58,881 bases of DNA from a virus (IMGVR_UViG_3300036767_001238:1-58881); one strand, 5' to 3'; positions 26,456 to 58,703 are shown, counted from the first letter of the stretch. Numbers and translations are program-made. The notes: generated from the letters alone by a model not told the origin.

Positions 26456-26638
26456 ATGGAAGACACGCCCATCAGAACCACCGAGGAGCATCGACAGGCC
26501 CTTCAGCAGATCGAACGACTATGGCACGCCGCCCCCGGTTCACCCGACGAAGTCAGACTGGAAAAATTGGTGACCGCAGTGGAGGCTTATGAAGCGCAGA
26601 AGTTCAGCGGGTGGGACGAGGAGCAGACCCAAGGCTGA
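26456..26638 (+). CDS. Orphan HigA-like antitoxin, N-terminal domain only (no HTH)
   Basis: PIRTTEEHRQALQQIERLWHAAPGSPDEVRLEKLVTAVEAYE matches the HigA N-terminal consensus; stops before the HTH; GAGG RBS. Confidence 0.75.
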   Translation: MEDTPIRTTEEHRQALQQIERLWHAAPGSPDEVRLEKLVTAVEAYEAQKFSGWDEEQTQG

Positions 26639-26647
26639 CAGCCGCTG

Positions 26648-26941
26648 TCAGAACTTACTGGTTCGGCAGACCCCGAGTTTAAAGCCAAGGGCTCTGACTG
26701 CCGCCAATACCAGTGAAAATGGCGGGTCATTCCCATCACGAAATGCCTCAAGCAATGCAGTATGCTCTATGCCAACTTGCGCGGCTATGCCTTCGGGGCC
26801 GCGTGCTCGGATTACGTCACCGATGGCGCCAATGATCACCAGAGCGTCACCATCATCGAAAGCAGCTTCCAAATACGCGTCCTGCTCGACACGCGTCTGA
26901 AGATGTTCCTGAATATCCCATTGGGAGATTTCGTGAGGCAT
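26648..26941 (-). CDS. Orphan addiction-module antidote (HI1420/TIGR02684-like) with degenerate HTH
   Basis: WD..EHL.T....AYLEAA...GD...I..A.GD..RARG; no toxin gene adjacent. Confidence 0.8.
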   Translation of the reverse strand: MPHEISQWDIQEHLQTRVEQDAYLEAAFDDGDALVIIGAIGDVIRARGPEGIAAQVGIEHTALLEAFRDGNDPPFSLVLAAVRALGFKLGVCRTSKF

Positions 26942-27022
26942 ATAGCTGCTTTCTTTGATGCGGCCAGCATAACGTTGCTCTGGATGTCATTCCAACGCAA
27001 CGCCTCTTCCGGCCCTGCTCGA

Positions 27023-28054
27023 TTACGTCCGCTTGCCCGGGATCAGGACCCGCGGCCGTGTGCAGTAATGCAGCGCGTTCATCTGGAACTCGAGGTTCAC
27101 ACCCTTGCCGTTCTGCATCTCCCACTGCTTGCCGTAGAGGCGCTGGCCCGGCGTGTTCACGGTCTCGATGTAATCGGCCGGTGCATAGACCGTGCGGAAG
27201 AGACCAGGCACGCCCGAAGGCACGAGGTGGCACTTGTCAGTGTCGATGCCGACGTTCTGGCCGCCGCGGTAGTTCATCCAGGTGATGCCGCCAAACTCGA
27301 AGGCGCCGTAAATGCCGGAATTGCCCGAGTTGATATAGGCGTTCCGGAGCGATGCCGCGTCTGCATAGCCCTTGTAAGTTTCGCGGACCTCTTGGTGGGC
27401 GATGAGATCATCGAAGAACGCGTCGCCGCAAAGCGCCATGATGCCTGTATAGGGCAGCCCGTCGAGAATGCCTGCCATCTGACGGATGACACCCGCGCAT
27501 TTCTTGCGGAGTGCGCCATCGGCGGCGCTCGCATTGTCGAGGTCGAAGTCCACCACTGCCTGCTGGTTTTCGCCAAACTCGGTGAAGTAATCGAACAGAA
27601 CCGAGCCATCAGCATCGAGTAGCTGGCCGGTCTTGAGAATGTTCAGCCGGTGGTATTCCTCGGTCAGTGCAAAGAACTGGCTCGCCTCGGCCGCGCGGTC
27701 TGCGATCTTCTGCTGCAGGCGCTCGACGGCAACCTCTTGGCCGAAAGCGCGGACCTGCTGCACCTCGTCGGCATAGATCGCATCATCGACCTGGAAGTGC
27801 GGCACCTTCAGCATGCGTACGGCGCGTTTCGATTTATCGAAGGTCTGGCCTGGACCACCGCGCGGGCTCGCGGAGACCAGCATGCGGTTTTGCTCTTTGT
27901 CCTTCTCGATTGCGATGTCGAGCGTATCGATGCTGGTGGTCTGGAACAGCCCCATTTGCCCGATGCGGGACGGGGTGTATTTGATCTCACGAAGCGCGTC
28001 CGTGAGGCGCATGACGCTGAAGGCGTCCTGACTGAAGATGTTGAGGATCGACAT
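27023..28054 (-). CDS. Major capsid protein (lambda gpE family)
   Basis: 343 aa after the decoration protein; FAPAD-like YAPADYIETVNTPG, C.RP.VL. Confidence 0.93.
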   Translation of the reverse strand: MSILNIFSQDAFSVMRLTDALREIKYTPSRIGQMGLFQTTSIDTLDIAIEKDKEQNRMLVSASPRGGPGQTFDKSKRAVRMLKVPHFQVDDAIYADEVQQVRAFGQEVAVERLQQKIADRAAEASQFFALTEEYHRLNILKTGQLLDADGSVLFDYFTEFGENQQAVVDFDLDNASAADGALRKKCAGVIRQMAGILDGLPYTGIMALCGDAFFDDLIAHQEVRETYKGYADAASLRNAYINSGNSGIYGAFEFGGITWMNYRGGQNVGIDTDKCHLVPSGVPGLFRTVYAPADYIETVNTPGQRLYGKQWEMQNGKGVNLEFQMNALHYCTRPRVLIPGKRT

Positions 28055-28196
28055 GGGAGGTCCTTTTATTGCGTCGGCGCGCCAGCAACTGGTCGCGCAA
28101 GATCACCCTGCGGCCCGAGGCTGCAGGAGATCGCTTTGGTTGAGTGGACGGCGTTTTCGCCTTGCCTTGCAGGCCTCGGCGCGCCACCGTTGCCAC

Positions 28197-28406
28197 ATGC
28201 AAAAAACGATGGAATATCGCGGGTATCAGGCCGAAGTTTCCGAAGAGGGAGAGCTATTGGTCGGGCACATCTCCGTCATTCGAGACCGGGTTGGTTTCCA
28301 CGCGGAAAGCTTTGAGGCGTTGCGCGAAGCCTTCAGGGAAGCCGTGGACGATTATCTTGACGTCTGCCAGATTGTCGGTAAGTCACCAGCCAAGCCTGAC
28401 ACATAA
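28197..28406 (+). CDS. hicB: Orphan HicB-like antitoxin, N-terminal domain only (no RHH)
   Basis: MEYRGY.A.V......LVG.I..IRD.VGFHAES..ALREAF.EAVDDYL..C...GK.P.KP then stop. Confidence 0.78.
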   Translation: MQKTMEYRGYQAEVSEEGELLVGHISVIRDRVGFHAESFEALREAFREAVDDYLDVCQIVGKSPAKPDT

Positions 28407-28424
28407 TCGCAAGACGGGATCAAA

Positions 28425-28796
28425 TTACCGCACGATGATCCCGGCCGTCGCGAGATCAGCTTGGGCAGCTGCCTTTTCCGCCGCCTCATCGCGGTCGGGA
28501 TGGTAGATCAGGATCTTGCCGTTGACCTCTGCATCCCGCGTGATGGCGGCCACCGCAACATCACTGCCCGTGGCATCGCAGCCGTAGAGCGCGATCGCCA
28601 CGGCCGTCTGGCTGCCATCGGTCGCGCCGACGGCGCTCGCCAGATATTTGCCGCTGGCGGTGATTTTGCCGAGTACCGAGCCCGGAGCGATGATACCCGC
28701 GCCGCTGGCGATGGTGATGTTTTCTCGGGACCGCTGGCCGTTGGCCTCGGTCATCAGGAATTCGCCGGGATGCCGGCCTTCGATGAGAACGGTCAT
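28425..28796 (-). CDS. Head decoration protein (lambda gpD family)
   Basis: GEFLMTEANG.RSRE.ITI..G...PG.VLGKIT. Confidence 0.9.
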   Translation of the reverse strand: MTVLIEGRHPGEFLMTEANGQRSRENITIASGAGIIAPGSVLGKITASGKYLASAVGATDGSQTAVAIALYGCDATGSDVAVAAITRDAEVNGKILIYHPDRDEAAEKAAAQADLATAGIIVR

Positions 28797-28812
28797 GGAC
28801 GGTCTCTCCTAT

Positions 28813-29223
28813 TTAGCTGAAGCGCGCATTGGCCTGGGTGATAGCTTTCGCCCACCCGGCCGCATTTCGTTCAGACCGGTTGCGGTGATCGGCCGGGGTT
28901 TCGGCCCCGAGTTCAGCCTCTTGCGCAGCTCGGTCAGCGATGGACGTTGCTGCACTGGCCTTCGGCGAAGCGGCCAGAACCTTGGCCGCGTCGGCCGCCG
29001 TCATTTCAGTTTCAAGCGCCAACACCAAGGCTTGCGCTTCCCGACCTTCCGTTTCCGGAGCGGTCAGGATGACTTTGATCCGCGCTGTGGCCTCCGCCTT
29101 ACCGGCAGTAACGCCAGCCACATGGGCCTCCGTCCGCGCGGCTTCGACAGCCGCCTGTAAATCTGCGGGGCTGATGGCAGCGACGTCACTCGCGGGCGCC
29201 TCGCTTTGGGGTGTTTTGGTCAT
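28813..29223 (-). CDS. Nested in-frame scaffolding protein (lambda Nu3-like)
   Basis: Strong internal RBS AAAGGGAGGA before ATG (MTKTPQ...); Ala/Glu-rich helical tail. Confidence 0.65.
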   Translation of the reverse strand: MTKTPQSEAPASDVAAISPADLQAAVEAARTEAHVAGVTAGKAEATARIKVILTAPETEGREAQALVLALETEMTAADAAKVLAASPKASAATSIADRAAQEAELGAETPADHRNRSERNAAGWAKAITQANARFS

Positions 29224-30150
29224 AGGTCCTCCCTTTCTCTGGGGGCTTGCCCCGGAGGGCGGTTGCGAGAGCGCGGCGATCACCTCCTCAAGGCTCGCCA
29301 TGCGATCAGCGAGGCCCTGGGCGATGGCATCGGCGCCAAGATAGGTGCGAGCTTCTGTCGCCCGGATAGCCTCAGAACTGATCCGACCGGCGCGCCCTTC
29401 GGCCACGAGACCGACGAACTGGTCGTAGATTTTCAGGACCTCGGCCTGCAGGTCTGCGCGTACGGCGTCTGACAGCGGCCCAAACGGGTGGCCGTCGACC
29501 TTGTGGGCACCAGCATGGATCAGCGTTGGCTTCACGCCGCGATCCTCAAGCTCGCCTGAGCGATCGAGATGGGTCAGCACCACACCGATCGAGCCGACCA
29601 TCGAGGTGGGCGAGACGATGATTTCCGAGGCCGCACTGGCGATGCCATAGGCGGCCGACGCTGCGACATCATTTACAAAGGCCACGACAGGTTTGGTCTT
29701 GTTGACGGCACTGACCAGCTTGGCCGTGGCAAACATGCCCGTGGCCTCGCCGCCAGGGCTGTCGATATCCAAGAGGATTGCCCGCACATCCGGGTCGGCT
29801 TCCGCCTCGCGCAACTGTGCTGCAATCCCCTCATAGGACACGAGGCCCGAACTGGCGCCGATCCAGGCACCACGGTTCACCAAGCTGCCGACGATCGGCA
29901 GGATGGCGACGCCGTTTTCGAGGCGCATCGTGCTGAAGTTGCCATTGTCGCGGCGGTAGCTGCCCACGAAGCGGTTCGCCTGTGGGTCCAGCGCCGACAA
30001 TGGCTCGATCCCGATCCGCCCCTGCAGCACGTGCAGGATCAGATCAGCCTTGTCTGGATGCAGAAGCAGCGGCCGGTTAAGAACGCGTCCTGCGATCTGT
30101 GCGAGAGACGGACCTGCCGCGGCTCGTTTTATATCGGGCGGTTCCGTCAC
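28813..30150 (-). CDS. S49 prohead protease (lambda gpC-like)
   Basis: IDSPGGE, AASAAY, GSIGV, GAHKVDG; GTG start at 30150 coupled to the upstream stop. Confidence 0.93.
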   Translation of the reverse strand: MTEPPDIKRAAAGPSLAQIAGRVLNRPLLLHPDKADLILHVLQGRIGIEPLSALDPQANRFVGSYRRDNGNFSTMRLENGVAILPIVGSLVNRGAWIGASSGLVSYEGIAAQLREAEADPDVRAILLDIDSPGGEATGMFATAKLVSAVNKTKPVVAFVNDVAASAAYGIASAASEIIVSPTSMVGSIGVVLTHLDRSGELEDRGVKPTLIHAGAHKVDGHPFGPLSDAVRADLQAEVLKIYDQFVGLVAEGRAGRISSEAIRATEARTYLGADAIAQGLADRMASLEEVIAALSQPPSGASPQRKGGPMTKTPQSEAPASDVAAISPADLQAAVEAARTEAHVAGVTAGKAEATARIKVILTAPETEGREAQALVLALETEMTAADAAKVLAASPKASAATSIADRAAQEAELGAETPADHRNRSERNAAGWAKAITQANARFS

Positions 30151-30407
30151 CTCACCCCTCCTGTACCAAGTGCAAAGCGCCGCGGACCGCGGCCCTGCAG
30201 CTGGGCGCATTGTTCCTCAAAGCAGCGAATGACCGCCAAAAGCCGGTCGGGATGCGCCCGGTGATAGGTCACCGACCGTTCCACCCCGTTTGATCCCGCC
30301 CGGAACCGCACCTCCATGGCGCCTTCGCCCGCCACCAGACGCACATAGACCTGGCGAAGGCTGGCAGCGGCAGCGCAAGGATCCGCTTCATCGATGCTGA
30401 TCGTCAT
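30147..30407 (-). CDS. Head completion/adaptor (lambda gpW-like)
   Basis: 86 aa; RSVTY...L...I...E motif; adjacent to the portal gene. Confidence 0.7.
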   Translation of the reverse strand: MTISIDEADPCAAAASLRQVYVRLVAGEGAMEVRFRAGSNGVERSVTYHRAHPDRLLAVIRCFEEQCAQLQGRGPRRFALGTGGVR

Positions 30408-32026: not shown

Positions 32027-32031
32027 GTGCG

Positions 32032-34545: not shown

Positions 34546-35646
34546 TTATCGGCGGAACCGGCGGATCAGACCGGGCGCTGCCGCATAACTCGCAAAGAAC
34601 AGCACCCCGAAGATCACAACGGCCAGAAACGCATTCTGATTTTGGTTCCACAGCAGCACACCCGCGATTGGCGGTGCGATGACGAAGGGCAACAAGACCA
34701 GTGTCGTGAGCGGGTTTGCAATTTGACGCCGGTTTCGGCCGAGGATGCATATTTCCAGTGCGCGCATCACCATTTGATGCACATGCAACCGATCCGGGGC
34801 CGAAACGTCCTTGTTTCTGCGAGACCTCCGATAGATCGCCAGCAGCGTATCAGCCACAGGCCAATACATCGTGAGCAAAATGGCCCAGGGCGAGACATCA
34901 GGCGCATTGAGCAGAACCGCTATTCCGAACCAACTCAGCACAAATCCGATGGTGTATGCCCCAGCATCGCCGAGGAAGATCAGACCAAAGGGATAGTTCA
35001 CGAGGAAGAACCCGAATATCCCTGCGGCAACCATCATCGCGAGGTGGACCATCGTGGCGTAGCCTGCCAGCTCCGCGATTTGGCTCAGGGCCATGGCTGC
35101 TGCGATAGCCGTCATAGACGCGAGGCCGTTCACCCCATCAATTAGGTTGAAGCCGTTTGCGATACCTGCCGTCACCAGAAGGGTAAGCGGAACGCCGACC
35201 GCCCAGTGCGCTACCAGCAGGTCTAGCCCAGGGATTCCGGCACGTGGCAGCCAAACGCCCAAGAGCCAGATCGCCAGCAAACTCGCGCCCATGGCAGACA
35301 ACATCCGCCGTCGAGGCGACATGTGGAACCCAAGGTCCTCTGCCAGCCCCACAACAAAGAGGAGCGAGGTCGCAAGAACGAAATTGGCATACGGCCCAGA
35401 AATTGAAACGGGAGCAAAGATCACGCTCAGACCCAGTGCACCAAAGATCGCCACGCCCCCAACACGTGGGGTGAGCCGCGTGTGCATGGACTGAACCGCC
35501 CGCAAGTCATCCGTACGCCCGCTCAGGCGCGGAAACCGAGAGCGCAGCAAAACAACCACAGCACAAATCACAAACGCAAGCGCGGCCAAAACAAACTCGT
35601 GCCATTCGAAATGCAACATGGCGTTGTGAACCAAGGGCGGCCCCAA
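34546..35646 (-). CDS. WecA/WbpL/MraY-family (GT4) undecaprenyl-phosphate sugar-1-phosphate transferase (alternative start 35619)
   Basis: PRVGG, NGFNLIDGVNGL, FLGDAG, DTL..I.RR, PDRLHVH; multiple TM helices. Confidence 0.92.
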   Translation of the reverse strand: MGPPLVHNAMLHFEWHEFVLAALAFVICAVVVLLRSRFPRLSGRTDDLRAVQSMHTRLTPRVGGVAIFGALGLSVIFAPVSISGPYANFVLATSLLFVVGLAEDLGFHMSPRRRMLSAMGASLLAIWLLGVWLPRAGIPGLDLLVAHWAVGVPLTLLVTAGIANGFNLIDGVNGLASMTAIAAAMALSQIAELAGYATMVHLAMMVAAGIFGFFLVNYPFGLIFLGDAGAYTIGFVLSWFGIAVLLNAPDVSPWAILLTMYWPVADTLLAIYRRSRRNKDVSAPDRLHVHQMVMRALEICILGRNRRQIANPLTTLVLLPFVIAPPIAGVLLWNQNQNAFLAVVIFGVLFFASYAAAPGLIRRFRR

Positions 35647-38053: not shown

Positions 38054-38086
38054 GCACCAGCCCACTGCCGTTCCGCAATCCACCGC

Positions 38087-38353
38087 TCAATAATGAAAGC
38101 GCAGCTGTGCGATTTCCAAGCTTTGGTGATCGCCCGAGCCACTGACGCGGTAGACCATCCGATCTTGATGCGAAATCCTGCGCGACCACCAACCAGAGAG
38201 GTCACCCCGCAACGGTTCAGGTTTACCGACACCCTTGAACGGTGTGCGTTGGCATTGCTTGATCAGTTCATTGATCCGATCACGAACCTTGGGATTATTG
38301 TCAGCCCAATAAAGATAATCTTCCCAAGCCTCGTCAGAAAAAATCAGTTTCAA
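38087..38353 (-). CDS. yoeB: Txe/YoeB-family toxin
   Basis: AWEDYLYW...GVGKPEPL...LSG.WSRRI...DR.VY...RFHY. Confidence 0.95.
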   Translation of the reverse strand: MKLIFSDEAWEDYLYWADNNPKVRDRINELIKQCQRTPFKGVGKPEPLRGDLSGWWSRRISHQDRMVYRVSGSGDHQSLEIAQLRFHY

Positions 38354-38601
38354 TCCAGCAGCTCGCGCGTTTGCCCACCATCACCATCAAGCTGGGCGAT
38401 AGCCGACCGCAAGCGGGATGCATTGCGCGGGTTTGAAAGCAAATGAAGCGTTTCGTTGATCGCGCTCCAAGCTTCGAGAGACACGACGACGACGGCCTCG
38501 CCCTTCTTGCGTGTGACGATGACTTCTTCTTTGTCGTTGATCGCGCGGTCCATCACAGACTTTAGCTGTGCACGCGCATCCGAATAGGTCATGACGTTCA
38601 T
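38350..38601 (-). CDS. yefM: YefM/Phd antitoxin
   Basis: TYSDARAQLK.VMD...ETLHLLSNPRNA.RL. Confidence 0.95.
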   Translation of the reverse strand: MNVMTYSDARAQLKSVMDRAINDKEEVIVTRKKGEAVVVVSLEAWSAINETLHLLSNPRNASRLRSAIAQLDGDGGQTRELLD

Positions 38602-38629
38602 AGTAGCTCTCCCGAAAACGCTTCATACA

Positions 38630-38648
38630 TGTACGACATATTGTACGA
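38630..38648. promoter_or_regulatory. Probable YefM-YoeB operator (two TGTACG cores)
   Basis: tgtacgacatattgtacga upstream of yefM; resembles the TGTACA cores of the E. coli yefM-yoeB operator. Confidence 0.55.
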
Positions 38649-38797
38649 TTTCAAGTGGCAAGTTTTTCGGCGGGGCACGTGTGAAGATTGTCTTGACCAC
38701 CTCGACATTGACGCACAGGGTATTTTCGATGGCATTGCAACAACTTGGCGTGCGCGACACTGCGATCAGCCACGAACCACCCGTCGGGGAATCGAAA

Positions 38798-38998
38798 ATG
38801 ATCAAACCAAACCAAGATACTCAGCTTGGCCACCAGGCTCAGGCAGAAACAGCATCAGAGACACGGCAATCGACGGACGCCGATGCCGAACACCGAGAGG
38901 CCATTGCCGGCATCACCAAAGGGCTATCGCAAGCCCTGGCGGGACGTGGGGTTGAGGCAAGACGCTTTTTCAAAGAATTGAAGGCGTCTCGAGGGTAG
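38798..38998 (+). CDS. Small protein resembling the C-terminal toxin-binding tail of ParE/RelE-type antitoxins
   Basis: EAIAGITKGLSQALAGRGVEARRFFKELK; GGGGA RBS. Confidence 0.5.
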   Translation: MIKPNQDTQLGHQAQAETASETRQSTDADAEHREAIAGITKGLSQALAGRGVEARRFFKELKASRG

Positions 38999-39037
38999 GA
39001 TATTCACAAGCCGCTGCTTACTCTTCGATGGCCTGCC

Positions 39038-39553
39038 TTATTTTGACCTCGAACGCGGTGACGTATGACCGTCGCCGGTGAGAGCGGCGTCCTCGGCGAG
39101 CCATGCAGCGGTCATTGGGTCATCCTGATCCTTCAACCCACCAGACCTGCGAAACCGAAGCCCAAACTGCCGTGCAACACTCGCACCCAAGATGGCGCCA
39201 ATCCCGTCTGCAACAAGGTCCACCCACTCGGCCTGTCGGCCAAAGAAGGGCTGGATCACCTCAATCGCTCCACCATAGGCAATGACGCTCAGAATAACCC
39301 ACACCGTCCAGCGTGGCCGCACGAGCGGCAGCGGGAACGCGAGACAGGCGAAGGCCAGGATATGGTAGATCTTGTCCGACCCTGCCGGACCACCGGCGGG
39401 CATCGGCGCCAGGGTGAGCACGGCAATGACCACCGCCAGAACGAGTGTCACCGCGCTGCCAATCGCCATCCGTCTCAGTTTCATCTGCCCTTGCGCCACA
39501 CATCGCTCCTCTGGGTGAACGCCCATCAGCGCGGTTTTCCCATGGAGTGTCAA
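39038..39553 (-). CDS. VanZ-family membrane protein (start uncertain)
   Basis: DKIYH..AF, YGGAIEVIQPFFGR.A...D..AD..G. Confidence 0.88.
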   Translation of the reverse strand: MTLHGKTALMGVHPEERCVAQGQMKLRRMAIGSAVTLVLAVVIAVLTLAPMPAGGPAGSDKIYHILAFACLAFPLPLVRPRWTVWVILSVIAYGGAIEVIQPFFGRQAEWVDLVADGIGAILGASVARQFGLRFRRSGGLKDQDDPMTAAWLAEDAALTGDGHTSPRSRSK

Positions 39554-39566: not shown

Positions 39567-40898
39567 TCAGACCCCAGTTTCGGCGACGACCGGCATGGTC
39601 TCGCCAGAGTTCAGATCATCAAAACTCTGCCGACTGCTTTCCAGCACCGCGGCCTCACCCGTTAACTCCTGCCAGCGGCGCACGATCACATCCACATATT
39701 TCGGGTCGAGTTCGATCAAAGACGCGTGGCGACCGGTCTTTTCAGCGGCGATGAGCGTCGTGCCGCTGCCGCCGAACGGGTCAAACACCAGATCACCCTT
39801 GCGGCTCGAGTTGCGGATTGCCCGTTCGACCAGAGACACCGGCTTCATCGTGGGATGCAGATCATTCTTATGGGGCCGCTCGATGTTCCAAACATCGCCC
39901 TGGTCACGGTCGCCGCACCAGTGGCGCTTCACACCCTCGGGCCAGCCGTAGAGGATTGGCTCATACTGGCGCTGATAGTCCGCGCGACCCAGGGTGAAGC
40001 GGTCCTTCGCCCAAATGATGAAGGTCGACCAATGGCCGCCTGCGGATTTGAATGCGGATTGCAGCGTCTGCAGCTCGCTGGACGACATGCAGATGTAGAC
40101 CGCGCCGTCCGTGTGCGCGTTGATGAGCACGCAGGCGTCGTAGAGGAATTGACCGAAGCCATCGCCCAGGGCGTCGTTCTTGATCCGCCGGCCCTTGCCG
40201 GCCTTTTCGGCGCCGACGCCGCCGGCGTAGTCCACATTGTAGGGTGGATCACAAAAGCAGAGGTCTGCCTTCACATCGCCGAGGACCTTGGCCACATCCG
40301 TCGCCACCGTGCTGTCGCCGCAGAGCAGCCGGTGCTTGCCCATGAGCCAGACATCGCCGGGCCGCGTCACCGGGGCCTCGGGCACTTCCGGCACATCGTC
40401 GGGATCCGTCAGGCCGCCCGTGGTGTCGATCAGCGCGTCCGGCAGGATCTCGGCCAGATCCTCGGCACTGAAGCCGATCAGCGACATGTCCTCGATCCCG
40501 AAATCCTCGCGCAGCTCCACGATCTCGATGCGCAGCATCTCCGGGTCCCACTCGGCAATCTCCGCGAGCCGGTTGTCGGCCAGCGTGTAAAGCCGCCGGT
40601 CCTCTTCGGACCAGCCGCGTGCCACCATCACCGGCACTTCCGCAAGGCCCAACTGGGCGGCGGCCATCAGCCGGCCGTGGCCCGCGATGATCGTTCCGTC
40701 TTCTGCCACCAGCATCGGGATGGTGAAGCCGAACCGCTCCATTGACGCCGCGATCTGGTCGATCTGCTCCGGTGGGTGCTGGCGCGCGTTTTTCGCGTAG
40801 GGGACCAAGTCGGCCACCTGCCACATCTCGACCTGCGCCGCGGGCCAAGCCTGCGGGGTAATTTTAGATTGTGCGGTCATCAGATACCTGTCGGGCAT
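39567..40898 (-). CDS. ParB-N domain fused to an N6-A/N4-C DNA methyltransferase
   Basis: IIAGHGR, ADNRL; DPPYN, HPTMKP, FDPFGGSGTT. Confidence 0.95.
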   Translation of the reverse strand: MPDRYLMTAQSKITPQAWPAAQVEMWQVADLVPYAKNARQHPPEQIDQIAASMERFGFTIPMLVAEDGTIIAGHGRLMAAAQLGLAEVPVMVARGWSEEDRRLYTLADNRLAEIAEWDPEMLRIEIVELREDFGIEDMSLIGFSAEDLAEILPDALIDTTGGLTDPDDVPEVPEAPVTRPGDVWLMGKHRLLCGDSTVATDVAKVLGDVKADLCFCDPPYNVDYAGGVGAEKAGKGRRIKNDALGDGFGQFLYDACVLINAHTDGAVYICMSSSELQTLQSAFKSAGGHWSTFIIWAKDRFTLGRADYQRQYEPILYGWPEGVKRHWCGDRDQGDVWNIERPHKNDLHPTMKPVSLVERAIRNSSRKGDLVFDPFGGSGTTLIAAEKTGRHASLIELDPKYVDVIVRRWQELTGEAAVLESSRQSFDDLNSGETMPVVAETGV

Positions 40899-41985: not shown

Positions 41986-42038
41986 GAACCGAAAGGGGTT
42001 GACAGGTTTTGCGACAACCCGATTGCGCCAACCAAAAT

Positions 42039-42061
42039 TTTCCGGTAAAGATTTCCGGAAA
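42039..42061. promoter_or_regulatory. Probable VapBC operator (two TTCCGG(T/A)A near-palindromes)
   Basis: tttccggtaaagatttccggaaa immediately before the RBS. Confidence 0.5.
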
Positions 42062-42071
42062 GGAGAACATC

Positions 42072-42353
42072 ATGACCGTAAGTCAGTCCAACACCACTCA
42101 GTGGCGCAAGCGACAGGCGGCACTCGGCTTCGTTCGGGTCGAGGTCCAAGTGCGCAAAGAAGACGCCAGCCTGGTGCGAGAGATTGCCAACGCGCTTGGC
42201 GATCCAGCGCGGCACGATGCAACCCGCGCGATCTTGCGCCAAAAAATCACACGTTCGCCTTCCAAAAGCTTCAAGGCGCTTCTTGCCTCTGCGCCCTTGG
42301 AGGGTATCGAGCTTGATCGTCCAAGCGATTTCGGTCGCGAGATTGATTTGTGA
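42072..42353 (+). CDS. Antitoxin for the downstream VapC
   Basis: Basic RHH-like N-terminus; C-terminal SFKALL..APLEGIEL.R..D.GR.IDL; GTGA overlap with vapC. Confidence 0.75.
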   Translation: MTVSQSNTTQWRKRQAALGFVRVEVQVRKEDASLVREIANALGDPARHDATRAILRQKITRSPSKSFKALLASAPLEGIELDRPSDFGREIDL

Positions 42354-42763
42354 GCTACCTGATCGACACCAACGTCATCTCCGAACTGCGCAAAGGCGAC
42401 CGATGCGACCCGGCAGTAGCCGCGTGGTGGGCAAAGGTGGACGAGGATGAACTCTGGACCAGCGCACTCGTTCTCGGTGAAATTCGTAGGGGCATCGAAC
42501 TTGCAAGGCGTCGCGACCCACAAAAAGCAAAAGCTTTGGAAGCGTGGTTGGAAGAAGTTGTCTCCGGATTTGGCGACCGCGTTCTGCATGTAGACGCGCA
42601 AGTTGCCGATGAATGGGGACGGATGAACGCTATTCGTCCGCTTCCTGTCATCGATGCCCTAATTGCAGCCACCGCAAGAGCCAATGGCCTCATCTTTGTA
42701 ACCCGAAATGGAACGGATGTTCAGGGCGTTGGTGTCGAAATCCTCAATCCTTTCGCAGACTGA
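42350..42763 (+). CDS. vapC: VapC PIN-domain toxin
   Basis: YLIDTNVISE, GEI..GI, DALIAATA, VTRN..D. Confidence 0.95.
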   Translation: MSYLIDTNVISELRKGDRCDPAVAAWWAKVDEDELWTSALVLGEIRRGIELARRRDPQKAKALEAWLEEVVSGFGDRVLHVDAQVADEWGRMNAIRPLPVIDALIAATARANGLIFVTRNGTDVQGVGVEILNPFAD

Positions 42764-42786: not shown

Positions 42787-43197
42787 CTATGCCGGCGTCT
42801 CGCTGCGGGCCCCAATAGCGAACTTCAGCCCGCCAAGCCAAGTCGCGAAGCTTTCCTCGGAAATCACGCCAGATGCCAAGTCTTCCATCGCCCTGACGCC
42901 GTCGAGCGGATCCGGACGCAAGCCGAAGCCATTCAGGCGCAGAAACGTGGCGGACGTTACAAAGGCTGTCCGCTTGTTGCCATCAACAAAAGCATGCGCC
43001 TTCGCAATCCCAAACGCATAAGCCGCGGCAATTTCATCAAGGCTCGGCTCGCCATAGGCCGCCTTGTTGCGGGGACGCTCCATCGCGGCCTCGAGAAGCT
43101 GGATGTCGCGCATGCCTGACGCACCGCCGTGGCGCGCGATTTGGCGATCATGGATGATAAGAACCGCCTGCAGCGGCACCCATACCGGCTCGCTCAC
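42787..43197 (-). CDS. doc: Death-on-curing (Doc/Fic) toxin
   Basis: HAFVDGNKRTA Fic motif; HGG..G.RD...L. Confidence 0.95.
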   Translation of the reverse strand: MSEPVWVPLQAVLIIHDRQIARHGGASGMRDIQLLEAAMERPRNKAAYGEPSLDEIAAAYAFGIAKAHAFVDGNKRTAFVTSATFLRLNGFGLRPDPLDGVRAMEDLASGVISEESFATWLGGLKFAIGARSETPA

Positions 43198-43418
43198 GCA
43201 AGCGCCTGCAGCATGTCACGGTTTTCGTCCATGACGATTTGCGCTGCAGCGAGAGCTGCGGCCAACTCAGGGTTCTGCAGCGTGATCTTCAGGCTGCCAT
43301 CGTCGCCTCGCACCAGGTAGACCGTATCCCCTTCGCGGGCATCAAGGGCCGCCAGCATTTCCGCCGATAGCGTAACTACAGCCGAGTTGCCGACTTTGCG
43401 GATGCGGGTTTCGAACAT
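43194..43418 (-). CDS. AbrB/MazE-type antitoxin of Doc
   Basis: IRKVGNSAVVTL...EGD; ATGA overlap with doc. Confidence 0.9.
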   Translation of the reverse strand: MFETRIRKVGNSAVVTLSAEMLAALDAREGDTVYLVRGDDGSLKITLQNPELAAALAAAQIVMDENRDMLQALA

Positions 43419-51190: not shown

Positions 51191-51194
51191 GGGC

Positions 51195-51914: not shown

Positions 51915-51933
51915 GGGAGTTGTCCTTTCCTGT

Positions 51934-52797: not shown

Positions 52798-52902
52798 GGC
52801 GCGCTCCTTTGGTTGGGTGAAAAATCAACGGCGGCGGGGGGTGACCGGGCGCCGAAGGGGAGCCTGCCCAGCCTTTCGGTCAGGGCGTCCCCGCCGCCGC
52901 AT

Positions 52903-53388: not shown

Positions 53389-53413
53389 GAGGGGTTCCTT
53401 TTCGGGGGATGGG

Positions 53414-53743
53414 TCAGGCAGCTGCCGCCAGCTGCTTCACTGAAGCGGATGGAACAGCGCCCTTGTGCGGGCGGGCGATGGCGAGATAGGCGAACCGGTC
53501 CGGGCCAAGGCGTTCCTGAACAAGGTGGATGCGACCGAGCTCAGAAAGCCGGTACGCTGCGTTTGCCGTGGCGCGCAAATCCTCAAGCGCGGGTTTGCCA
53601 AGCGTCGAGACATTGGGCGTCGTATCGACCACCAGAAAGCCGCGGTGATAGACGAGGCGCGCGCCAGGCTCGGCGACGTCAACCCACGCCATCAGCGTGA
53701 TTTCCGAAACTACGGGCGCACTGGTTGAGAGATGCGCGATCAT
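53414..53743 (-). CDS. Hypothetical protein (YHRGFL motif)
   Basis: W...A.PG..L.YHRGFL...HLVQ.R; ATGA overlap with the upstream gene. Confidence 0.75.
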   Translation of the reverse strand: MIAHLSTSAPVVSEITLMAWVDVAEPGARLVYHRGFLVVDTTPNVSTLGKPALEDLRATANAAYRLSELGRIHLVQERLGPDRFAYLAIARPHKGAVPSASVKQLAAAA

Positions 53744-53964
53744 GCGGCGCACTCAACAAGGGTCAGAGCCGGCGCTGGTCCGGCAGCCTCGATATGCTTG
53801 GCCTCAAAGGCCTGGATATCAGTCTGGCGATAGCGCACATGCCGGCCAATTCGGACGAATTGCGGCCCACGGCCTTCAGCGCGCCAACGTTCCAGGGTGC
53901 GCGGCGCAATGTTCCAGCGCCGGGACAAGAGCTTCGTGCTCAATAGGGTGTGATCTTGTTCCAT
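53740..53964 (-). CDS. AlpA/excisionase-like HTH protein
   Basis: LSRRWNIAPRTLERWRAEGRGPQFVRIG..VRY...DI..FE. Confidence 0.88.
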   Translation of the reverse strand: MEQDHTLLSTKLLSRRWNIAPRTLERWRAEGRGPQFVRIGRHVRYRQTDIQAFEAKHIEAAGPAPALTLVECAA

Positions 53965-54008
53965 GGCGGTCCTCATCGAGTTGATGAGGGCAACTTGCCA
54001 AACCCTTG

Positions 54009-54143
54009 GGTTGGAGGTCGTGGCATGAATGGTCGGTGATAGAATTTATTTTTTGTTGGAAAATCAATGGTCGGAAAATTTTCGGTTGGAGCTCCAACCC
54101 AACACCAACCATTCACCAACCGAGCTCCGACCGAACACCGACC
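54009..54143. promoter_or_regulatory. Helically phased CCRACC array upstream of the early operon
   Basis: CCRACC at 54094, 54105, 54116, 54127, 54138 (11-bp period); reverse GGTYGG at 54009, 54031, 54069, 54084. Confidence 0.75.
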
Positions 54144-54196
54144 GAAGTGCACTGCTCAGTTCGCGCCAAAATCGAATCACGGTGATCGCCGGACAC

Positions 54197-54220
54197 AAAA
54201 AAGCCCGCGCGAAGCGGGCC
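54197..54220 (-). terminator. Intrinsic terminator after the 54242-54940 gene
   Basis: Minus strand ggcccgc ttcgc gcgggc tttttt. Confidence 0.6.
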
Positions 54221-54241
54221 TGTTCAGCGTGAGGTTCGGTA

Positions 54242-54940
54242 TCAGGGGCCGACACGCATCGTCACCACCAAGGCGGGTTCGAGCATGTAATAGCCTCGGC
54301 GCTTTACGACGGGATGCACGATGTCGCGCCACCCCTTCCGGCTGGAAAACAAATAGCTAAGCTTCAAGGAGGCTGAACCTGCCGCCGCCAAAATCTGAGC
54401 GCCGCGCTGCTCTGGGTCACCCGTGATGGCGCAGATGAACAAATAGTTCAAAGCGCGCGCCTGCATGTCTGTAAAAAGATAGTGCTGTCCATTCAGATCA
54501 AAGGACAAAAACCGATCATAATCATTGGCATGGGGCGCACCCACAGCCATAATCGTCGCCTCAAAATGCTCGCGCTCAGCAGCACGGACAAGCAGCGCGT
54601 CGCGATAGACCACCCAGTCAGTTCCGCCCTCTGACGTTGTCACGAAACCACCGTTTTGAGCAAAGGACGGGACAGAACAGGCCTGCTTGCGCAGCACCCG
54701 CATCGCATCACGCCGTTCCAGATCCACTACCCCCTCGAAGTCAGGGTTGCACCGGCCGGGCCGGTCTTTCCGGTCAGCAACGACGAAAGAGCCATAGACG
54801 CGGACTGACAGGGTCAGTTGGCCCATCTCCACGACGTAGCCCAGCTCCGACTCGGAGATGCCCCAGTCCGCCAGAACCTCCTGTAGGGTGAAATAGTCTC
54901 GTGGAATCAACACTGGCGGCAGCCTCCTTTGTTCACTCAA
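54242..54940 (-). CDS. Hypothetical protein divergent from cI, possibly a regulator (start uncertain)
   Basis: N-terminal YFTL.EV...W and C-terminal wHTH-like LF.....W...V......GYY. Confidence 0.7.
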   Translation of the reverse strand: MSEQRRLPPVLIPRDYFTLQEVLADWGISESELGYVVEMGQLTLSVRVYGSFVVADRKDRPGRCNPDFEGVVDLERRDAMRVLRKQACSVPSFAQNGGFVTTSEGGTDWVVYRDALLVRAAEREHFEATIMAVGAPHANDYDRFLSFDLNGQHYLFTDMQARALNYLFICAITGDPEQRGAQILAAAGSASLKLSYLFSSRKGWRDIVHPVVKRRGYYMLEPALVVTMRVGP

Positions 54941-54945
54941 TGTTC
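54931..54945. promoter_or_regulatory. LexA (SOS) box GTTC-N7-GTTC
   Basis: gttc actcaat gttc at the 5' end of the gene divergent from cI. Confidence 0.7.
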
Positions 54946-55016
54946 TTATCTGTTTGACTGTCCACTTTCAACAGAATAGATATCCAATTTAGTCCACAAC
55001 CCGGCTGGGGATAACC

Positions 55017-55691
55017 ATGATCGTCACCAACATCGCACAGCGCCTGAAGGCCCGCGCGTTCCAGCTCGACATGACGCCCGCGGCTGTGGCCGAGGCTTCA
55101 GGTCTGAACCGTTCCTTCATCTACGACATCATCCGCGGTAAGTCTGTGCGGCCGAGCCGTGCCAAGCTGCAGAAGGTTGCAGACGTCTTGAAGGTCGATG
55201 TTGACTGGCTGATCGACGGTGATGGGACGATAGAGGGCGAAGCCCCTAAGATCTATTCTCCGGACACGACCTTCGTCGGCATTTCCGGCGTCAAGGCAAA
55301 GGCTTCTGGGGGTGGCGGCACAATCGTGCATGCCGAGGACGAGCAAGCCAGCAAGCTCTATCATTTTAGGCTGTCCTGGATTGAAGATGAGTTGGAGGCC
55401 AACCCGAAAAACCTGAGGATCCTGCGCGTCACTGGGGACAGCATGGTGCCCACATTGAATGAGGGCGACACAATCCTGGTCGATATGGGGCGCAAGTCAC
55501 CCTATCCGCCAGGGCTTTTCGTATTGCATGACGGCATGGGGCTGATGGCCAAACGGATCGAGCACATTCCGTCCAGCGACCCACCACGCATTCGCGTCAC
55601 TTCCGACAATCCCAACTACTCGCCCTATGACTGCCTTCTCGATGAGGTCAACATCGTTGGGCGGATTCGCTGGTACGGCCGCCGGGTCTAA
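55017..55691 (+). CDS. CI-like repressor (HTH and S24 peptidase)
   Basis: N-terminal HTH; VTGDSM.PTL..GD, KR, SDNP.Y. Confidence 0.93.
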   Translation: MIVTNIAQRLKARAFQLDMTPAAVAEASGLNRSFIYDIIRGKSVRPSRAKLQKVADVLKVDVDWLIDGDGTIEGEAPKIYSPDTTFVGISGVKAKASGGGGTIVHAEDEQASKLYHFRLSWIEDELEANPKNLRILRVTGDSMVPTLNEGDTILVDMGRKSPYPPGLFVLHDGMGLMAKRIEHIPSSDPPRIRVTSDNPNYSPYDCLLDEVNIVGRIRWYGRRV

Positions 55692-55807
55692 TCCGAGCCG
55701 CCGACATGCGGCGCCACAAACCGACATAAGCCGACAAGCTATTGTTTTTGCTTGAATAAGTGAGAAGAGGACGGTTCTCTCAGCGTACAAATCTAAGAGA
55801 ACCCAAA

Positions 55808-56035
55808 ATGTACGACGATATCTTCGCGCCGCTGACTGCGGCCAATGCTTTGCATCCAACGAAAATGACGCCACGCGAGCGGCGTGCTGAACTGTGCAAA
55901 ATCCTTGCAGTTGGATATTTGCGGATGCGCGCTCGAAAAGTCAGGCAACACACTGAAAATAAGAGAGAAAGTTCACTACACTTTCGCGCAAGACGGAGCG
56001 TTCATGCGGAACCAACTCACAAGGAGGTCCCATGA
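55808..56035 (+). CDS. Small hypothetical protein upstream of DUF2924
   Basis: P.KMT.RER.AEL..ILA.G.LR; ATGA overlap with the next gene. Confidence 0.6.
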   Translation: MYDDIFAPLTAANALHPTKMTPRERRAELCKILAVGYLRMRARKVRQHTENKRESSLHFRARRSVHAEPTHKEVP

Positions 56036-56484
56036 CCAAAGAAGATCCCGTCTACGCCCGCGTCGCAGCTCTCAGAATTAGGACGCCCACCGAATTGCGC
56101 GAAATCTGGCGCGACCTGATGGGGACAGAGCCACCACCCTTCACCCGGCGCTACCTTGAAACCCGTCTGAGCTATCGCATCCAGGAACTCGCCTATGGCG
56201 GCCTAAAACCAGAGACCCGCAAGCGGCTCGAGGAATTGGCCGAGAAATGGGACGGCGACAACTCCGCCAAAAGGCGGATTCGCCATGATCTCAAGCCCAT
56301 CGCAGGCACCCGCCTGATCCGTGAGTGGCAAGGTGAGGAATACGTCGTGACCGTCACCGCCGATGGCTACGAATGGCAAGGCCGCCCGTATCAATCCCTC
56401 TCCGCCATTGCTCGGGCCATCACCGGCACGCGCTGGAATGGCCCGGTGTTTTTCGGCCTCAACAATTACAGGAAGCGCAAATGA
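56032..56484 (+). CDS. DUF2924-domain protein
   Basis: YRIQELAYGGL, GTRLIREWQG, SLSAIARAITGTRWNG..FFGL. Confidence 0.92.
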   Translation: MTKEDPVYARVAALRIRTPTELREIWRDLMGTEPPPFTRRYLETRLSYRIQELAYGGLKPETRKRLEELAEKWDGDNSAKRRIRHDLKPIAGTRLIREWQGEEYVVTVTADGYEWQGRPYQSLSAIARAITGTRWNGPVFFGLNNYRKRK

Positions 56485-57797
56485 CAAAACCAGCACCCAG
56501 AAAGATGCGCTGCGCGGTCTATACGCGCAAATCCAGCGAGGAAGGGCTCGAGCAAGAGTTCAACTCGCTTCACGCCCAACGCGAAGCCTGCGAGGCCTAT
56601 ATCGCCAGTCAGCGTTCAGAGGGCTGGGTCGTCCTTCGTGACCACTACGATGACGGCGGCATCTCCGGCGGCACATTGGAGCGGCCCGGGTTAAAACAGC
56701 TGCTGGCCGATATCGAGGACGGCTTGGTCGATGTGGTCGTGGTCTACAAAATCGACCGCCTATCGCGCTCGCTGATGGACTTTTCCAAACTGGTCGAAGC
56801 CTTCGAGCGAAATAACGTGACCTTCGTCTCCGTGACGCAATCGTTCAACACCACGTCATCGATGGGACGATTGACGCTGAACATCCTGCTGTCCTTTGCC
56901 CAATTCGAGCGCGAGGTGACCGCCGAGCGCATCCGCGACAAGGTCGCGGCTTCGAAGAAGAAAGGCATGTGGATGGGCGGCGTCCCACCGTATGGCTACG
57001 TTTGTATCAACCGCCGGCTTGAGATCAACAACGCCCAAGCTGCAGATGTACGGTGGATCTTTGAGCGGTTCGTTAACTTGGGGTCAGCCTTACTTGTCGC
57101 GAAGGAAGCGGCCAAGCGCGGCCTAACGACCCCCAGGGGCAAGCCCATGGACAACAAATACCTTTATCGTATCCTCCGTAACCCGATCTATATCGGCAAG
57201 ATCGTGCACAAGGACGAGACCTATCCCGGCCTGCACAAACCCATCATCGACATGGAAACCTGGGAAAAGGCCCGCGCGATCAATAGTGAAAACCCGCGCA
57301 TTCGCGCCGCTAGCACCCGCAAACAGACCCCTTCACTGCTGGCGGGCCTCATACGTGGACCTGACGGCGCGATGTTTTCGCCGACCCACACCCGCAAGCG
57401 CAATCGGCTCTATCGGTACTATGTCAGCCAGACCATCTTGAAGCACGGTGCTGGCAGCTGTCCTGTGGGCCGCATCCCCGCCGGTGAAATCGAAGCCAAT
57501 GTAACCGCGCAGCTACGCGCAGTCTTCCGTCAACCTGAAATCGTGGCCGAGTCCTGGCGCAACGCTGCAGACGACAAGCGGGCCTGCAGCGAGCAGGATA
57601 TCCACGCGGCGCTCAAAAGCCTTGACCCGCTGTGGAGCGAACTCTTCCCAGCCGAACAAGCGCGCATTGCCTCGATCCTGATCGATCACATCGACGTCTC
57701 CGAAACAGACATGAAGGTGCACCTGCGTGTCGACGGCCTGTGCCACCTCGCCCAGGACCTGAAATCCAGAACTCTCCCCAGAAAGGACGCAGCATGA
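56481..57797 (+). CDS. Large serine recombinase (integrase)
   Basis: CAVYTRKSS catalytic motif, DRLSRS, FAQFERE, GG.PP.GY, NP.YIG. Confidence 0.95.
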   Translation: MTKPAPRKMRCAVYTRKSSEEGLEQEFNSLHAQREACEAYIASQRSEGWVVLRDHYDDGGISGGTLERPGLKQLLADIEDGLVDVVVVYKIDRLSRSLMDFSKLVEAFERNNVTFVSVTQSFNTTSSMGRLTLNILLSFAQFEREVTAERIRDKVAASKKKGMWMGGVPPYGYVCINRRLEINNAQAADVRWIFERFVNLGSALLVAKEAAKRGLTTPRGKPMDNKYLYRILRNPIYIGKIVHKDETYPGLHKPIIDMETWEKARAINSENPRIRAASTRKQTPSLLAGLIRGPDGAMFSPTHTRKRNRLYRYYVSQTILKHGAGSCPVGRIPAGEIEANVTAQLRAVFRQPEIVAESWRNAADDKRACSEQDIHAALKSLDPLWSELFPAEQARIASILIDHIDVSETDMKVHLRVDGLCHLAQDLKSRTLPRKDAA

Positions 57798-58189
57798 CGG
57801 ACAAAATCACCACAACCGAAACCATCACCCTGACTATTCCCTTCAAGCTTAAAAAGCGTGGAGGTCGCAAAGAGATGGTCCTGCCAGATTTTGCCACACC
57901 ACCTCCGAAACTGGACAACGCGCTGATAAAATCGCTCGCGCGGGCGCATCGCTGGAAACGGCTTGTTGATGAAGGGCATTTTGCGTCGATCAAAGACCTG
58001 GCTGAGCACGAGAAAATTCCAGCCTCCTACATGATCCGCACCATGCGACTAACGACCCTGGCGCCTGACATTGTCGAGGCGATCCTGAAAGGCCGAAACC
58101 CCAACAAAACCCTTCGTGAGTTGCTCGATCCCTTCACACCGATGTGGGCCGAGCAACGCTGGGAGTTCGGCTATCACGACATGCCATGA
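57794..58189 (+). CDS. Recombinase-associated hypothetical protein
   Basis: RGGRKE, LARAHRW, LAPDIVEAIL.G, W.EQ; ATGA overlap with the recombinase. Confidence 0.8.
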   Translation: MTDKITTTETITLTIPFKLKKRGGRKEMVLPDFATPPPKLDNALIKSLARAHRWKRLVDEGHFASIKDLAEHEKIPASYMIRTMRLTTLAPDIVEAILKGRNPNKTLRELLDPFTPMWAEQRWEFGYHDMP

Positions 58190-58325
58190 AACCGGGCGCC
58201 CGCGTGGACGTGCACCGTCAGGCGCCGTTCGTGGCCGGCTATAGGGAAGTTTCAAGCGGGATTGTCCGCGAAATGTGCGGAGATAGCCAAGGATATTCTC
58301 CGCATGCCCATGTGGCCTGTGCCAA

Positions 58326-58703
58326 TCATGGCAACCCATCGGGTCCGTACAGAAAGTCCTGACTGAAAGCAGCTCTGTCGCCAGCCGTGGCCTTTCGAGC
58401 CGCCGCTGCGCGAACTCGACGGATGACTTCGGCCTTGCCACTTACGTCGCCCAGCACAGCCAAGTCCAAAACCTGTACCGAAGCTGATGGGGAGGCGGCC
58501 ATGATCTGCGCCACAGCGGCCGTAAGGACTTGCTCCAAGTTGGGGCCATTGCGTGTGAAACTGAGCGCGATCACATCCGGACGGCCGCTCCCAACAATCG
58601 TGTCATCCAGCCCCGCTTGAAACAACGCGTCCAAGACATCCGCCTCGTCAGGCTCTCCACCCGGAAAACTGATCACAATCTCGAATTCAAACATCGGCTT
58701 CAT
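58326..58703 (-). CDS. Orphan antitoxin-like protein (HicB-like N-terminal domain with VapB-like tail)
   Basis: FEF...L..AG.DD..VG.G....IAL.FTR...A...I; ends DFLYGPDGLP. Confidence 0.55.
   Translation of the reverse strand: MKPMFEFEIVISFPGGEPDEADVLDALFQAGLDDTIVGSGRPDVIALSFTRNGPNLEQVLTAAVAQIMAASPSASVQVLDLAVLGDVSGKAEVIRRVRAAAARKATAGDRAAFSQDFLYGPDGLP

Follow-up and report, generated by a model that had tools for sequence, protein, structure and literature searches.

What might a phage gain from an antitoxin gene that has parted both from its toxin and from the half of the protein that binds DNA? The question is raised by a stretch of viral DNA, IMGVR_UViG_3300036767_001238:1-58881 (58,881 nucleotides, here called the window), which contains a prophage of a temperate myovirus and makes up the opening 58.9 kb of a contig of 298 kb in a genome of 3.19 Mb (G000). 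An initial annotation had proposed that five toxin-less, antitoxin-like open reading frames (ORFs) dispersed over this prophage and its border, all stripped of DNA-binding function, constitute a system of antitoxin decoys directed against toxin-antitoxin (TA) defences. Our analysis retains this proposal for two of the ORFs, c1 and c2, on the strength of their conserved stops, their ratios of nonsynonymous to synonymous substitution rates (dN/dS, or omega), the absence of toxin remnants and the TA cassettes found as their alleles; it thereby narrows the proposal to c1, c2 and perhaps c3. These two genes are N-terminal domains of HigA and HicB antitoxins, devoid of toxin and DNA-binding parts, which occupy sites where sister prophages carry complete cassettes, derive from a truncation common to separate lineages, and have been subject to purifying selection over deep divergence. 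The three antitoxin-derived genes are as follows.

26456-26638, plus strand: c1, stand-alone HigA N-terminal domain of 60 aa, without helix-turn-helix (HTH) and without higB.
28197-28406, plus strand: c2, stand-alone HicB N-terminal domain of 69 aa, without ribbon-helix-helix (RHH) and without hicA.
26648-26941, minus strand: c3, full-length homologue of HI1420-type (PF21716/TIGR02684) antitoxins, without an upstream HI1419/Gp49 toxin and with a substituted recognition helix.

Searches of Pfam and NCBIfam with c1 returned no match, a single-sequence search of the Protein Data Bank (PDB) returned chance-level rows only, and comparison with the isolated-phage collection gave one weak match. c1 does match phrog_10398 (E=4e-6), a 66-position family of unknown function, and the same family is matched (E=8e-16) by the N-terminus of the HigA in sister prophage L032, a 123-aa protein that is encoded downstream of a PF09907 HigB (97 bits) and itself matches the E. 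coli-type HigA chains 5ifg_B and 5ycl_A end to end, at E of about 3e-3. Over residues 1-50 of that HigA, c1 shows 45-46% identity, includes the positions that are invariant in the N-domains of full-length HigAs, and terminates where the HTH half starts. The features of HigA membership are thus divided, the N-terminal domain being present and both the C-terminal HTH and the upstream higB missing; judged by these sequence comparisons, c1 is confirmed as a stand-alone N-terminal domain of E. coli-type HigA, as the initial annotation had read it. c1 also has a conserved C-terminal tail of its own, which full-length HigAs do not have: most of the 12 c1-type clusters retrieved (from a list of 13) end in GW-D/E-x-x-QT-Q/K-G, and ten are 60-62 aa in length. 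Genes of this type occur as well in L031, L060 (67% identical) and L212-L214. GAGGA is found 6 nt ahead of the ATG at 26456, and an alternative ATG at 26450 would give 62 aa. The gene runs antisense to the late operon and stops 9 nt from the stop of c3. Elsewhere, four loci (L112-L114, L119) were seen to encode a HigA-type N-domain and HTH followed by about 280 further residues at the C-terminus, for a protein of 403-412 aa, adjoining a PF09907 HigB.

The corresponding case for c2 is supported by both sequence and predicted structure. It matches phrog_9151, annotated as 'HicB-like antitoxin', with E=6.5e-21 over profile positions 1-69 of 119 only, and it aligns with full-length HicBs at 42-62% identity, ending 1-3 residues ahead of the RHH strand. 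c2 has no Pfam match because the HicB model, PF05534, represents the C-terminal part only (residues 55-105 of the HicB in L037). Single-sequence PDB searches with c2 and with that HicB yielded chance-level rows only. An AlphaFold2 (AF2) model of c2 has a predicted local distance difference test score (pLDDT) of 85.9, and its best Foldseek rows include the solved HicBs 6g26, 4p78 and 6g1c (prob 0.97-1.00, TMq 0.64-0.74, root-mean-square deviation 1.5-1.8 A), all at E>0.1, as is expected at 69 residues. With the N-terminal fold and sequence of HicB present, and the C-terminal DNA-binding domain (DBD) and adjacent hicA missing, c2 is confirmed as a stand-alone HicB N-terminal domain that ends where the RHH would begin, again in agreement with the earlier claim. 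Like c1 it is antisense to the late operon, and 18 nt separate its stop from that of the decoration gene. Truncated genes of the c2 type are present in L031 (85% identical), L065 (61%), the viral contigs L132-L135 and clusters P0001-P0003, and a second lineage of truncated HicB exists in clusters P0005 and P0006. A longer ORF, 28038-28406, was considered as the true c2 gene and rejected, since conservation among relatives begins at the internal ATG.

c3 departs from this pattern. It aligns with PF21716 from residue 4 to residue 91, on positions 1-88 of 90 (E=6e-15; 55.3 bits against a cut-off of 27), and scores 67.7 bits with TIGR02684, whose cut-off is 53.7. It is therefore above both curated cut-offs and full length, and the reading of it as an HI1420-like protein with an altered recognition helix is sound, as an alignment of the helix with 11 other family members bears out; unlike c1 and c2, c3 is not truncated. 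Ten of these 11 members have [ST]R-E/x-x-L-Y-K/R in the recognition helix where c3 has E-H-T-A-L-L-E, the substitutions being [ST]R to E-H, Y to L and K/R to E. An HI1419/Gp49-family toxin gene lies upstream in 10 of 12 sampled loci of the family and is absent at c3, which lies on the same strand as the late operon, 81 nt from the capsid gene. An intact pair of HI1419-like toxin and HI1420 antitoxin exists elsewhere in the genome (contig C19:25763-26354, L090), its antitoxin 40% identical to c3, and the toxin of this pair is a possible in-genome target of c3. The pair lies amid ORFs that, read by eye, resemble phage tail genes and form a second phage-like region. At another locus (L105:1189-1490), HI1419-like toxin matches fall in two adjoining pieces beside an intact antitoxin, which suggests a frameshifted toxin.

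That all three are toxin-less, as first described, was borne out. No remnant of HigB, HicA or HI1419 was found beside c1, c2 or c3, in or out of frame, nor were the missing domains of c1 and c2 found there. The gaps leave no room for a toxin gene, being only 29 nt (c1), 142 nt (c2) and 81 nt (c3) upstream, and 9 and 18 nt downstream.

The provenance of these genes is indicated by their sites, which are defined by the following neighbours.

26013-26426, minus strand: gene of the head-tail region (phrog_25398, a weak match), bordering hot spot 1.
26427-27022: hot spot 1, between the major capsid and head-tail genes, holding c3 and c1.
27023-28054, minus strand: major capsid gene (phrog_29), the anchor by which syntenic loci were found.
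28055-28424: hot spot 2, between the head decoration and major capsid genes, holding c2.
28425-28796, minus strand: head decoration gene (phrog_49), bordering hot spot 2.

A DNA search of the family with this region found one close relative only (G299), and a scan with the capsid protein, restricted to one genome per species, served better, yielding 50 loci from many genera with capsid identities of up to 99.7%. Hot spot 1 could be measured at 34 of these loci: 17 are empty (100 bp or less), two hold higB and higA (L032, L033), one holds an HI1419/HI1420 pair (L034), one holds c3 with c1 (L031), one a c1-type gene alone (L060), and 12 have other inserts. At hot spot 2 there are 38 empty sites (200 bp or less) among 45, four with hicA and full-length hicB (L037, L038, L041, L042), two with truncated hicB alone (L031, L065) and one with another gene; beyond these 45, G299 (L002) also has hicAB at this site. 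The complete cassettes are oriented like the corresponding orphans c2, c1 and c3, the capsids of their carriers are 94-99.7% identical, and Pfam confirms their toxins (PF07927, 43 bits; PF09907, 97 bits; PF05973, 30 bits). Complete TA pairs at the same sites of sister prophages argue that the orphans derive from TA cargo, and they place potential targets in rival phages. Contigs from RNA libraries that skip the inserts confirm that empty-site variants exist in nature. Apart from TA genes, hot spot 1 of six loci (L036-L039, L049, L062) has a conserved insert of about 318-349 bp, 74-97% identical and with no convincing ORF, possibly a non-coding element. Across prophages of many genera the major capsid protein is 97-99.7% identical, with synonymous divergence of 0.5-0.7 and omega of 0.002-0.02 (L031-L065), and two aquatic RNA libraries (X1, X2) have contigs of great depth with the capsid and decoration genes.

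Are the truncated genes maintained, or are c1-c3 leftovers of decaying TA cassettes, in which toxin-removing deletions have left functionless antitoxin pieces that are still unerased? The prophage is rich in TA cargo (four complete pairs, listed below) and both hot spots are empty in most relatives (38/45 and 17/34), which suits such decay. The substitution patterns of c1 and c2, obtained by the Nei-Gojobori method with bootstrap confidence intervals (CI), speak otherwise. Three deep pairs give a c2 dN/dS of 0.21 (CI 0.09-0.54), 0.22 and 0.18, and c1 compared with its relative in L060 gives 0.12 and 0.31, with CI below 1. The signal is specific to the reading frame: the other five c2 frames contain stops, and four of them score about 0.9-2.3, while the fifth, antisense with shared third positions, scores 0.23. 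Moreover, the c2 lineages represented by the window with L132-L134, by L031 with L135, and by L065 have a 2-residue deletion in common, and the spacer from c2 stop to decoration-gene stop is 18 nt in the window and L132, in L031 and in L065, though its sequence has diverged; in L065 the stop falls one codon earlier. The common deletion, stop position and spacer length imply that the truncation is older than the divergence of these lineages to 60% protein identity, and hence that the ORF stayed open long after it occurred. Only in-frame length changes were seen among copies, and most retrieved c1 clusters keep the C-terminal tail; both observations count against decay. Low dN/dS at depth, together with conserved stop and junction, thus argues that c1 and c2 are maintained genes rather than fresh remains. 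A comparison of the window with L031 adds that dS is 0.06 for c3 and 0.14 for c1, as against 0.62 for the capsid gene lying between them and c2; this points to recent exchange of a c3-c1 cassette much younger than its flanks, and suggests spread instead of decay.

Several observations weigh against maintenance and must be set beside this record. Among the closely related c2 copies of the window and L132-L134, six changes are nonsynonymous and none is synonymous, and for close c1 pairs omega is 0.36-0.58 with CIs that include 1, so that recent changes in both genes are also compatible with relaxed or diversifying selection. In viral contig L215 (864-1100) a c1 copy has a frameshift in a run of C, which may reflect either genuine decay or a misassembly. 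In c3 there are 4 synonymous and 7 nonsynonymous changes (omega 0.55, CI 0.14-2.1), too few to judge selection, so that this gene is indistinguishable from one evolving neutrally. Under random substitution simulated at the observed divergence, the frame stays open in 12% of trials for c2 and in 19-20% for c1; an open frame by itself is accordingly weak evidence of maintenance. Stand-alone forms in the viral collection are confined to this phage lineage, making up 4 of the 80 best HicB-like loci in IMG/VR and, among 27 HigA-like loci, 3 intact copies and 1 broken one. Taken with the lack of a target toxin in the carriers (below), these points keep decay in contention as an account of c1-c3, but a quite unlikely one. 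Of the marks of selection named in the initial annotation, conserved truncation points are borne out by c1 and c2, in which separate lineages keep the stop position and the 3' junction, and its anticipated dN/dS below 1 holds at depth for c1 (0.12-0.31) and c2 (0.18-0.22) and cannot be judged for c3. The out-of-frame remnants of missing domains or toxins that would have spoken against its proposal were not found at c1 or c2.

If the two genes are maintained, the best reading, tentatively held and drawn from sequence relationships, is that they neutralise toxins in trans. c1 and c2 would be maintained toxin-binding domains, taken from HigA and HicB antitoxins, whose genes ride as small cargo ('morons') in the gaps that flank the major capsid gene. 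With the DNA-binding half missing they cannot repress a promoter of their own. The free domain would bind and block RNase toxins of the HigB (PF09907) or HicA (PF07927) family that belong to another element, either a sister prophage with a complete cassette at the same site or the TA defence of a newly infected host, and the phage or lysogen might thereby be protected from abortive infection, exclusion or post-segregational killing. c3 may act likewise on HI1419/Gp49 toxins. Expression, toxin binding, neutralisation and the identity of the beneficiary are, for c1 and c2, what we infer from homology and context.

Toxin binding by these domains is weakly supported, by homology and one complex prediction. 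The N-domain is reportedly the HigB-binding part of E. coli HigA (Yang et al. 2016). For HicB, the N-terminal region blocks the active site of HicA and the C-terminal region binds DNA (PMC6159526), and in 4p78 an 86-residue HicB3 chain is found in complex with HicA3. Prediction of a complex between the HigB of L032 and c1 gave a score of 0.51, the best of three controls scoring 0.00, with runs agreeing in at least 93% of contacts and a partner pLDDT of at least 71. The mark it passed is reached by 116 of 157 solved complexes and by 2 of 215 mismatches; at this mark, scores of 0.60 or less comprise only 18 of the 157 solved complexes and both of the passing mismatches, and the verdict is one of weak support. 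Because a like complex, E. coli HigBA, has already been solved, the pass may reflect likeness only.

The targets of c1 and c2 would have to be sought outside the cell that now carries them. In their own genome the HicA model PF07927 found no match (the control search was positive in 7/14), nor did the HigB model PF09907, which was positive in 7/150 genomes of the family; tblastn with the sister-phage HicA found nothing at E<=0.05, tblastn with HigB was negative, and with HI1419 it found the pair on C19 only. None of the four carrier genomes (G000, G301, G302, G305) has a HicA- or HigB-family gene, and any target of c1 or c2 must therefore come from elsewhere. Potential targets do exist in sampled genomes of the host family, HicA in 21/150 and HigB in 7/150. 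The part of the initial annotation that named host toxins does not hold for the present hosts; neutralisation is plausible, with rival elements or new hosts as its likely targets. That the carriers lack a target adds to the weight against neutralisation, as do three further considerations. According to PMC11825919, the specificity of a type II antitoxin for its own toxin is high. A scan of 25900-28900 for consensus promoters and terminators found no more than in shuffled sequences, and no promoter for c1 or c2. The c1 gene starts only 29 nt from the start of its divergent neighbour, the head-tail gene. The antisense orientation of c1 and c2 to the late operon, which they have in common with the sister cassettes, suggests that they may have promoters of their own, active in the lysogen or early after entry. 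RNA-library contigs from two studies cover both genes; such contigs give neither strand nor level, the runs contained small shares of the stretch only (0.05-0.10), and since DNA can occur in these libraries the coverage is a weak hint of transcription and no proof.

Purifying selection in the absence of a resident target toxin is compatible also with a different task. c1 and c2 could bind a phage or host protein, or RNA, or, by way of the N-terminal dimer interface, could pair with full-length antitoxins that other elements encode and so disturb their regulation. HicB N-domains dimerise (PMC6159526), c1 has acquired a conserved tail of its own, and the position of the genes is fixed within the head gene block. 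On the other side, no partner or motif indicates such a role; the residues common to c1 and full HigA N-domains are the invariant ones of the family; the HigB-c1 complex, weakly supported as it is, was obtained against controls that scored zero; and the allelic cargo at the same sites consists of TA modules of exactly these families. We consider another function unlikely for these reasons, and neutralisation in trans the better account of c1 and c2. A more ambitious form of it, in which two or more unrelated families of TA cassettes have been turned by the phage lineage into constitutive sponges, devoid of DNA-binding domain and toxin alike, that take up HicA and HigB toxins from sister prophages and hosts armed with TA systems, as a multi-family anti-TA immunity panel in an arms race, is possible but rather doubtful. 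Were it true, the all-nonsynonymous recent changes would represent diversifying selection.

Such genes would join a small company. TA modules are now regarded as common anti-phage defences, and orphan antitoxins are the simplest imaginable answer on the part of a phage. Phage ICP1 reportedly has an antitoxin mimic that acts in counter-defence. The Dmd protein of T4 is a phage antitoxin with this role whose sequence is unrelated to the host antitoxin (PMC3874152); AdfN, a DarG-like NADAR protein, is an enzymatic phage orphan antitoxin used in the same way (PMC11825919); and cyanophage S-CREM1 has three whole orphan antitoxin genes proposed as neutralisers (PMC9964418). Phage-borne orphan antitoxins are already established as counter-defence for Dmd and DarG-like enzymes, and proposed as such for whole type II antitoxins. 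c1-c3, which lie in the structural block of a prophage and have stand-alone forms in IMG/VR contigs too, resemble these genes in being phage-encoded antitoxin homologues without a toxin, whereas c1 and c2 differ from them in being bare type II toxin-binding domains, in a temperate phage, and allelic with complete cassettes. Anti-addiction modules, chromosomal antitoxins which neutralise the toxins of incoming plasmid TA systems (PMC11825919 and PMC3874152), share with our proposal an antitoxin acting in trans on the toxin of another replicon; they are usually complete chromosomal TA systems, whereas c1-c3 are toxin-less genes on a prophage and c1 and c2 are fragments.

The closest relatives by structure are no less distinct. 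HicAB of 'class 1' (Gerdes), with a HicB of 60-90 aa that has no DBD, is a recognised evolving class paired with HicA, and a defence island is on record with hicB genes that stand alone (bioRxiv 10.1101/2023.12.08.570793). c2 resembles class 1 HicB in its N-terminal HicB fold and sequence and the lack of a DBD; class 1 HicB is encoded with HicA, whereas c2 has no HicA nearby or genome-wide and sits in a gap between prophage head genes. c1 is like E. coli-type HigBA (5ifg, 5ycl) in that it aligns with the N-domain of HigAs beside a PF09907 HigB, both in sister prophages and in further genomes of this family, and unlike it in having no HTH half, no higB and a conserved tail of its own. c3 belongs by score and length with HI1419/HI1420 (TIGR02683/TIGR02684; a Gp49-family toxin and an HTH antitoxin) and is set apart by the missing upstream toxin and the replaced [ST]R...LY.K helix. 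Having neither an intact DNA-binding part nor a toxin neighbour, c1-c3 are, to judge from their sequences, derivatives of TA systems rather than members in the operational sense. Proven cases of phage orphan antitoxins are few, and within the incomplete body of literature searched none was found to be a bare type II toxin-binding domain; nor was any account found there in which such domains of HicB or HigA, carried by phages, act as neutralisers. Gene finders and Pfam miss genes such as c1 and c2, and as neither has a Pfam match, orphan antitoxin domains may be under-counted. The natural allelic series of empty site, complete cassette and antitoxin domain alone, among phages with near-identical capsids, makes the idea directly testable, with the partners defined by the sister phages.

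The two remaining ORFs of the initial annotation were not shown to be antitoxin-like by any of the searches and models applied to them.

38798-38998, plus strand: ORF (4), conserved 66-aa protein of unknown function, separable from yefM-yoeB.
58326-58703, minus strand: ORF (5), full-length member of a family of 122-125 aa, with a ferredoxin-like model.

ORF (4) had been described as resembling a C-terminal toxin-binding tail. It is a real, conserved ORF, with an 80% identical copy in G303 and five representative relatives only, of 66-117 aa, none of which has a further domain. No match was obtained in Pfam (searched also with all 6 family members), NCBIfam, PHROG, PDB profile or isolated-phage searches, and what is left of the claim is an Atlas lead to RelB/PaaA2-type antitoxin clusters without DBD, at scores of 0.77-0.86, below the mark of 0.9. 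A longer ORF, 38591-38998, was rejected as the true gene because conservation in relatives begins at the internal ATG. The yefM-yoeB-(4) block (38054-39037; L081-L088) is an insertion polymorphism, G301, G302 and G304 having 23-73 bp in its place, and G303 has ORF (4) without yefM-yoeB. ORF (5), which had been taken for a HicB-like domain that has lost its HTH, is a full-length member of a family of 51 clusters, uniformly 122-125 aa long and 69-91% identical. Its model (pLDDT 75) has the order beta-alpha-beta-alpha-beta plus a helix, and its best Foldseek rows are ferredoxin-like proteins, none at E<=1e-3; no HicB is among those best rows, Atlas gave no usable match, and no HicA-like remnant was found upstream in the roughly 190 nt left to the contig end. 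A 164-aa paralogue of ORF (5) is present in the same genome (G000 C9:78611-79358; L089:1112-1859), with a probable C-terminal HTH where ORF (5) has a long helix; an 88-aa ORF (phrog_5923, no Pfam match) precedes and overlaps it, and the two may be an unclassified two-gene module.

It is consequently very improbable that the five ORFs together make up a single dispersed system of decoy antitoxins directed against defences. Three antitoxin-derived orphans in one prophage, and the sub-threshold lead from ORF (4) to RelB/PaaA2-type clusters, lend the idea some colour, but only these 3 of 5 are antitoxin-derived: no antitoxin relationship is detectable for (4) or (5), and for (5), full-length and of a different fold, it is largely refuted. 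Relatives can also have one of the genes without the others, as L060 has c1, L065 has c2 and G303 has (4), and no common regulation or repeat links them.

The prophage in which these genes reside, of GC content 0.61, has its structural genes on the minus strand, namely tail, baseplate, tape measure, sheath, head-tail, capsid, decoration, protease/scaffold, portal, and large and small terminase, and has replication and recombination genes as well. An Rfam search of the window found no family. Third-position GC is 0.51-0.68 in the five candidate ORFs versus 0.77-0.80 in the structural genes; low values are frequent in cargo genes. The same prophage has four complete TA pairs that the initial annotation had not listed (Xre/RES, YefM/YoeB, a PIN pair and MazE-like/Doc), given here with its lysogeny genes.

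21811-23041, plus strand: complete pair of an Xre-like antitoxin (21811-22308; PF20432 and PF09722) and a RES toxin (22265-23041; PF08808).
38087-38601, minus strand: complete pair of YefM (38350-38601) and YoeB (38087-38353), adjoining ORF (4).
42009-42763, plus strand: probable VapBC-type pair of a 114-aa ORF and a PIN-domain toxin (42350-42763).
42787-43418, minus strand: pair of a MazE/AbrB-type antitoxin (43194-43418) and a Fic/Doc toxin (42787-43197).
55017-55691: CI-like repressor.
56373-57797: serine integrase.

The Xre/RES pair lies antisense between tail and baseplate genes and represents a third cargo site of the structural block. Further cargo-like genes are a family-4 glycosyltransferase (34546-35646) beside the small terminase, a VanZ-like membrane protein (39038-39553), and a fusion of a ParB domain with a DNA methyltransferase (39567-40898).

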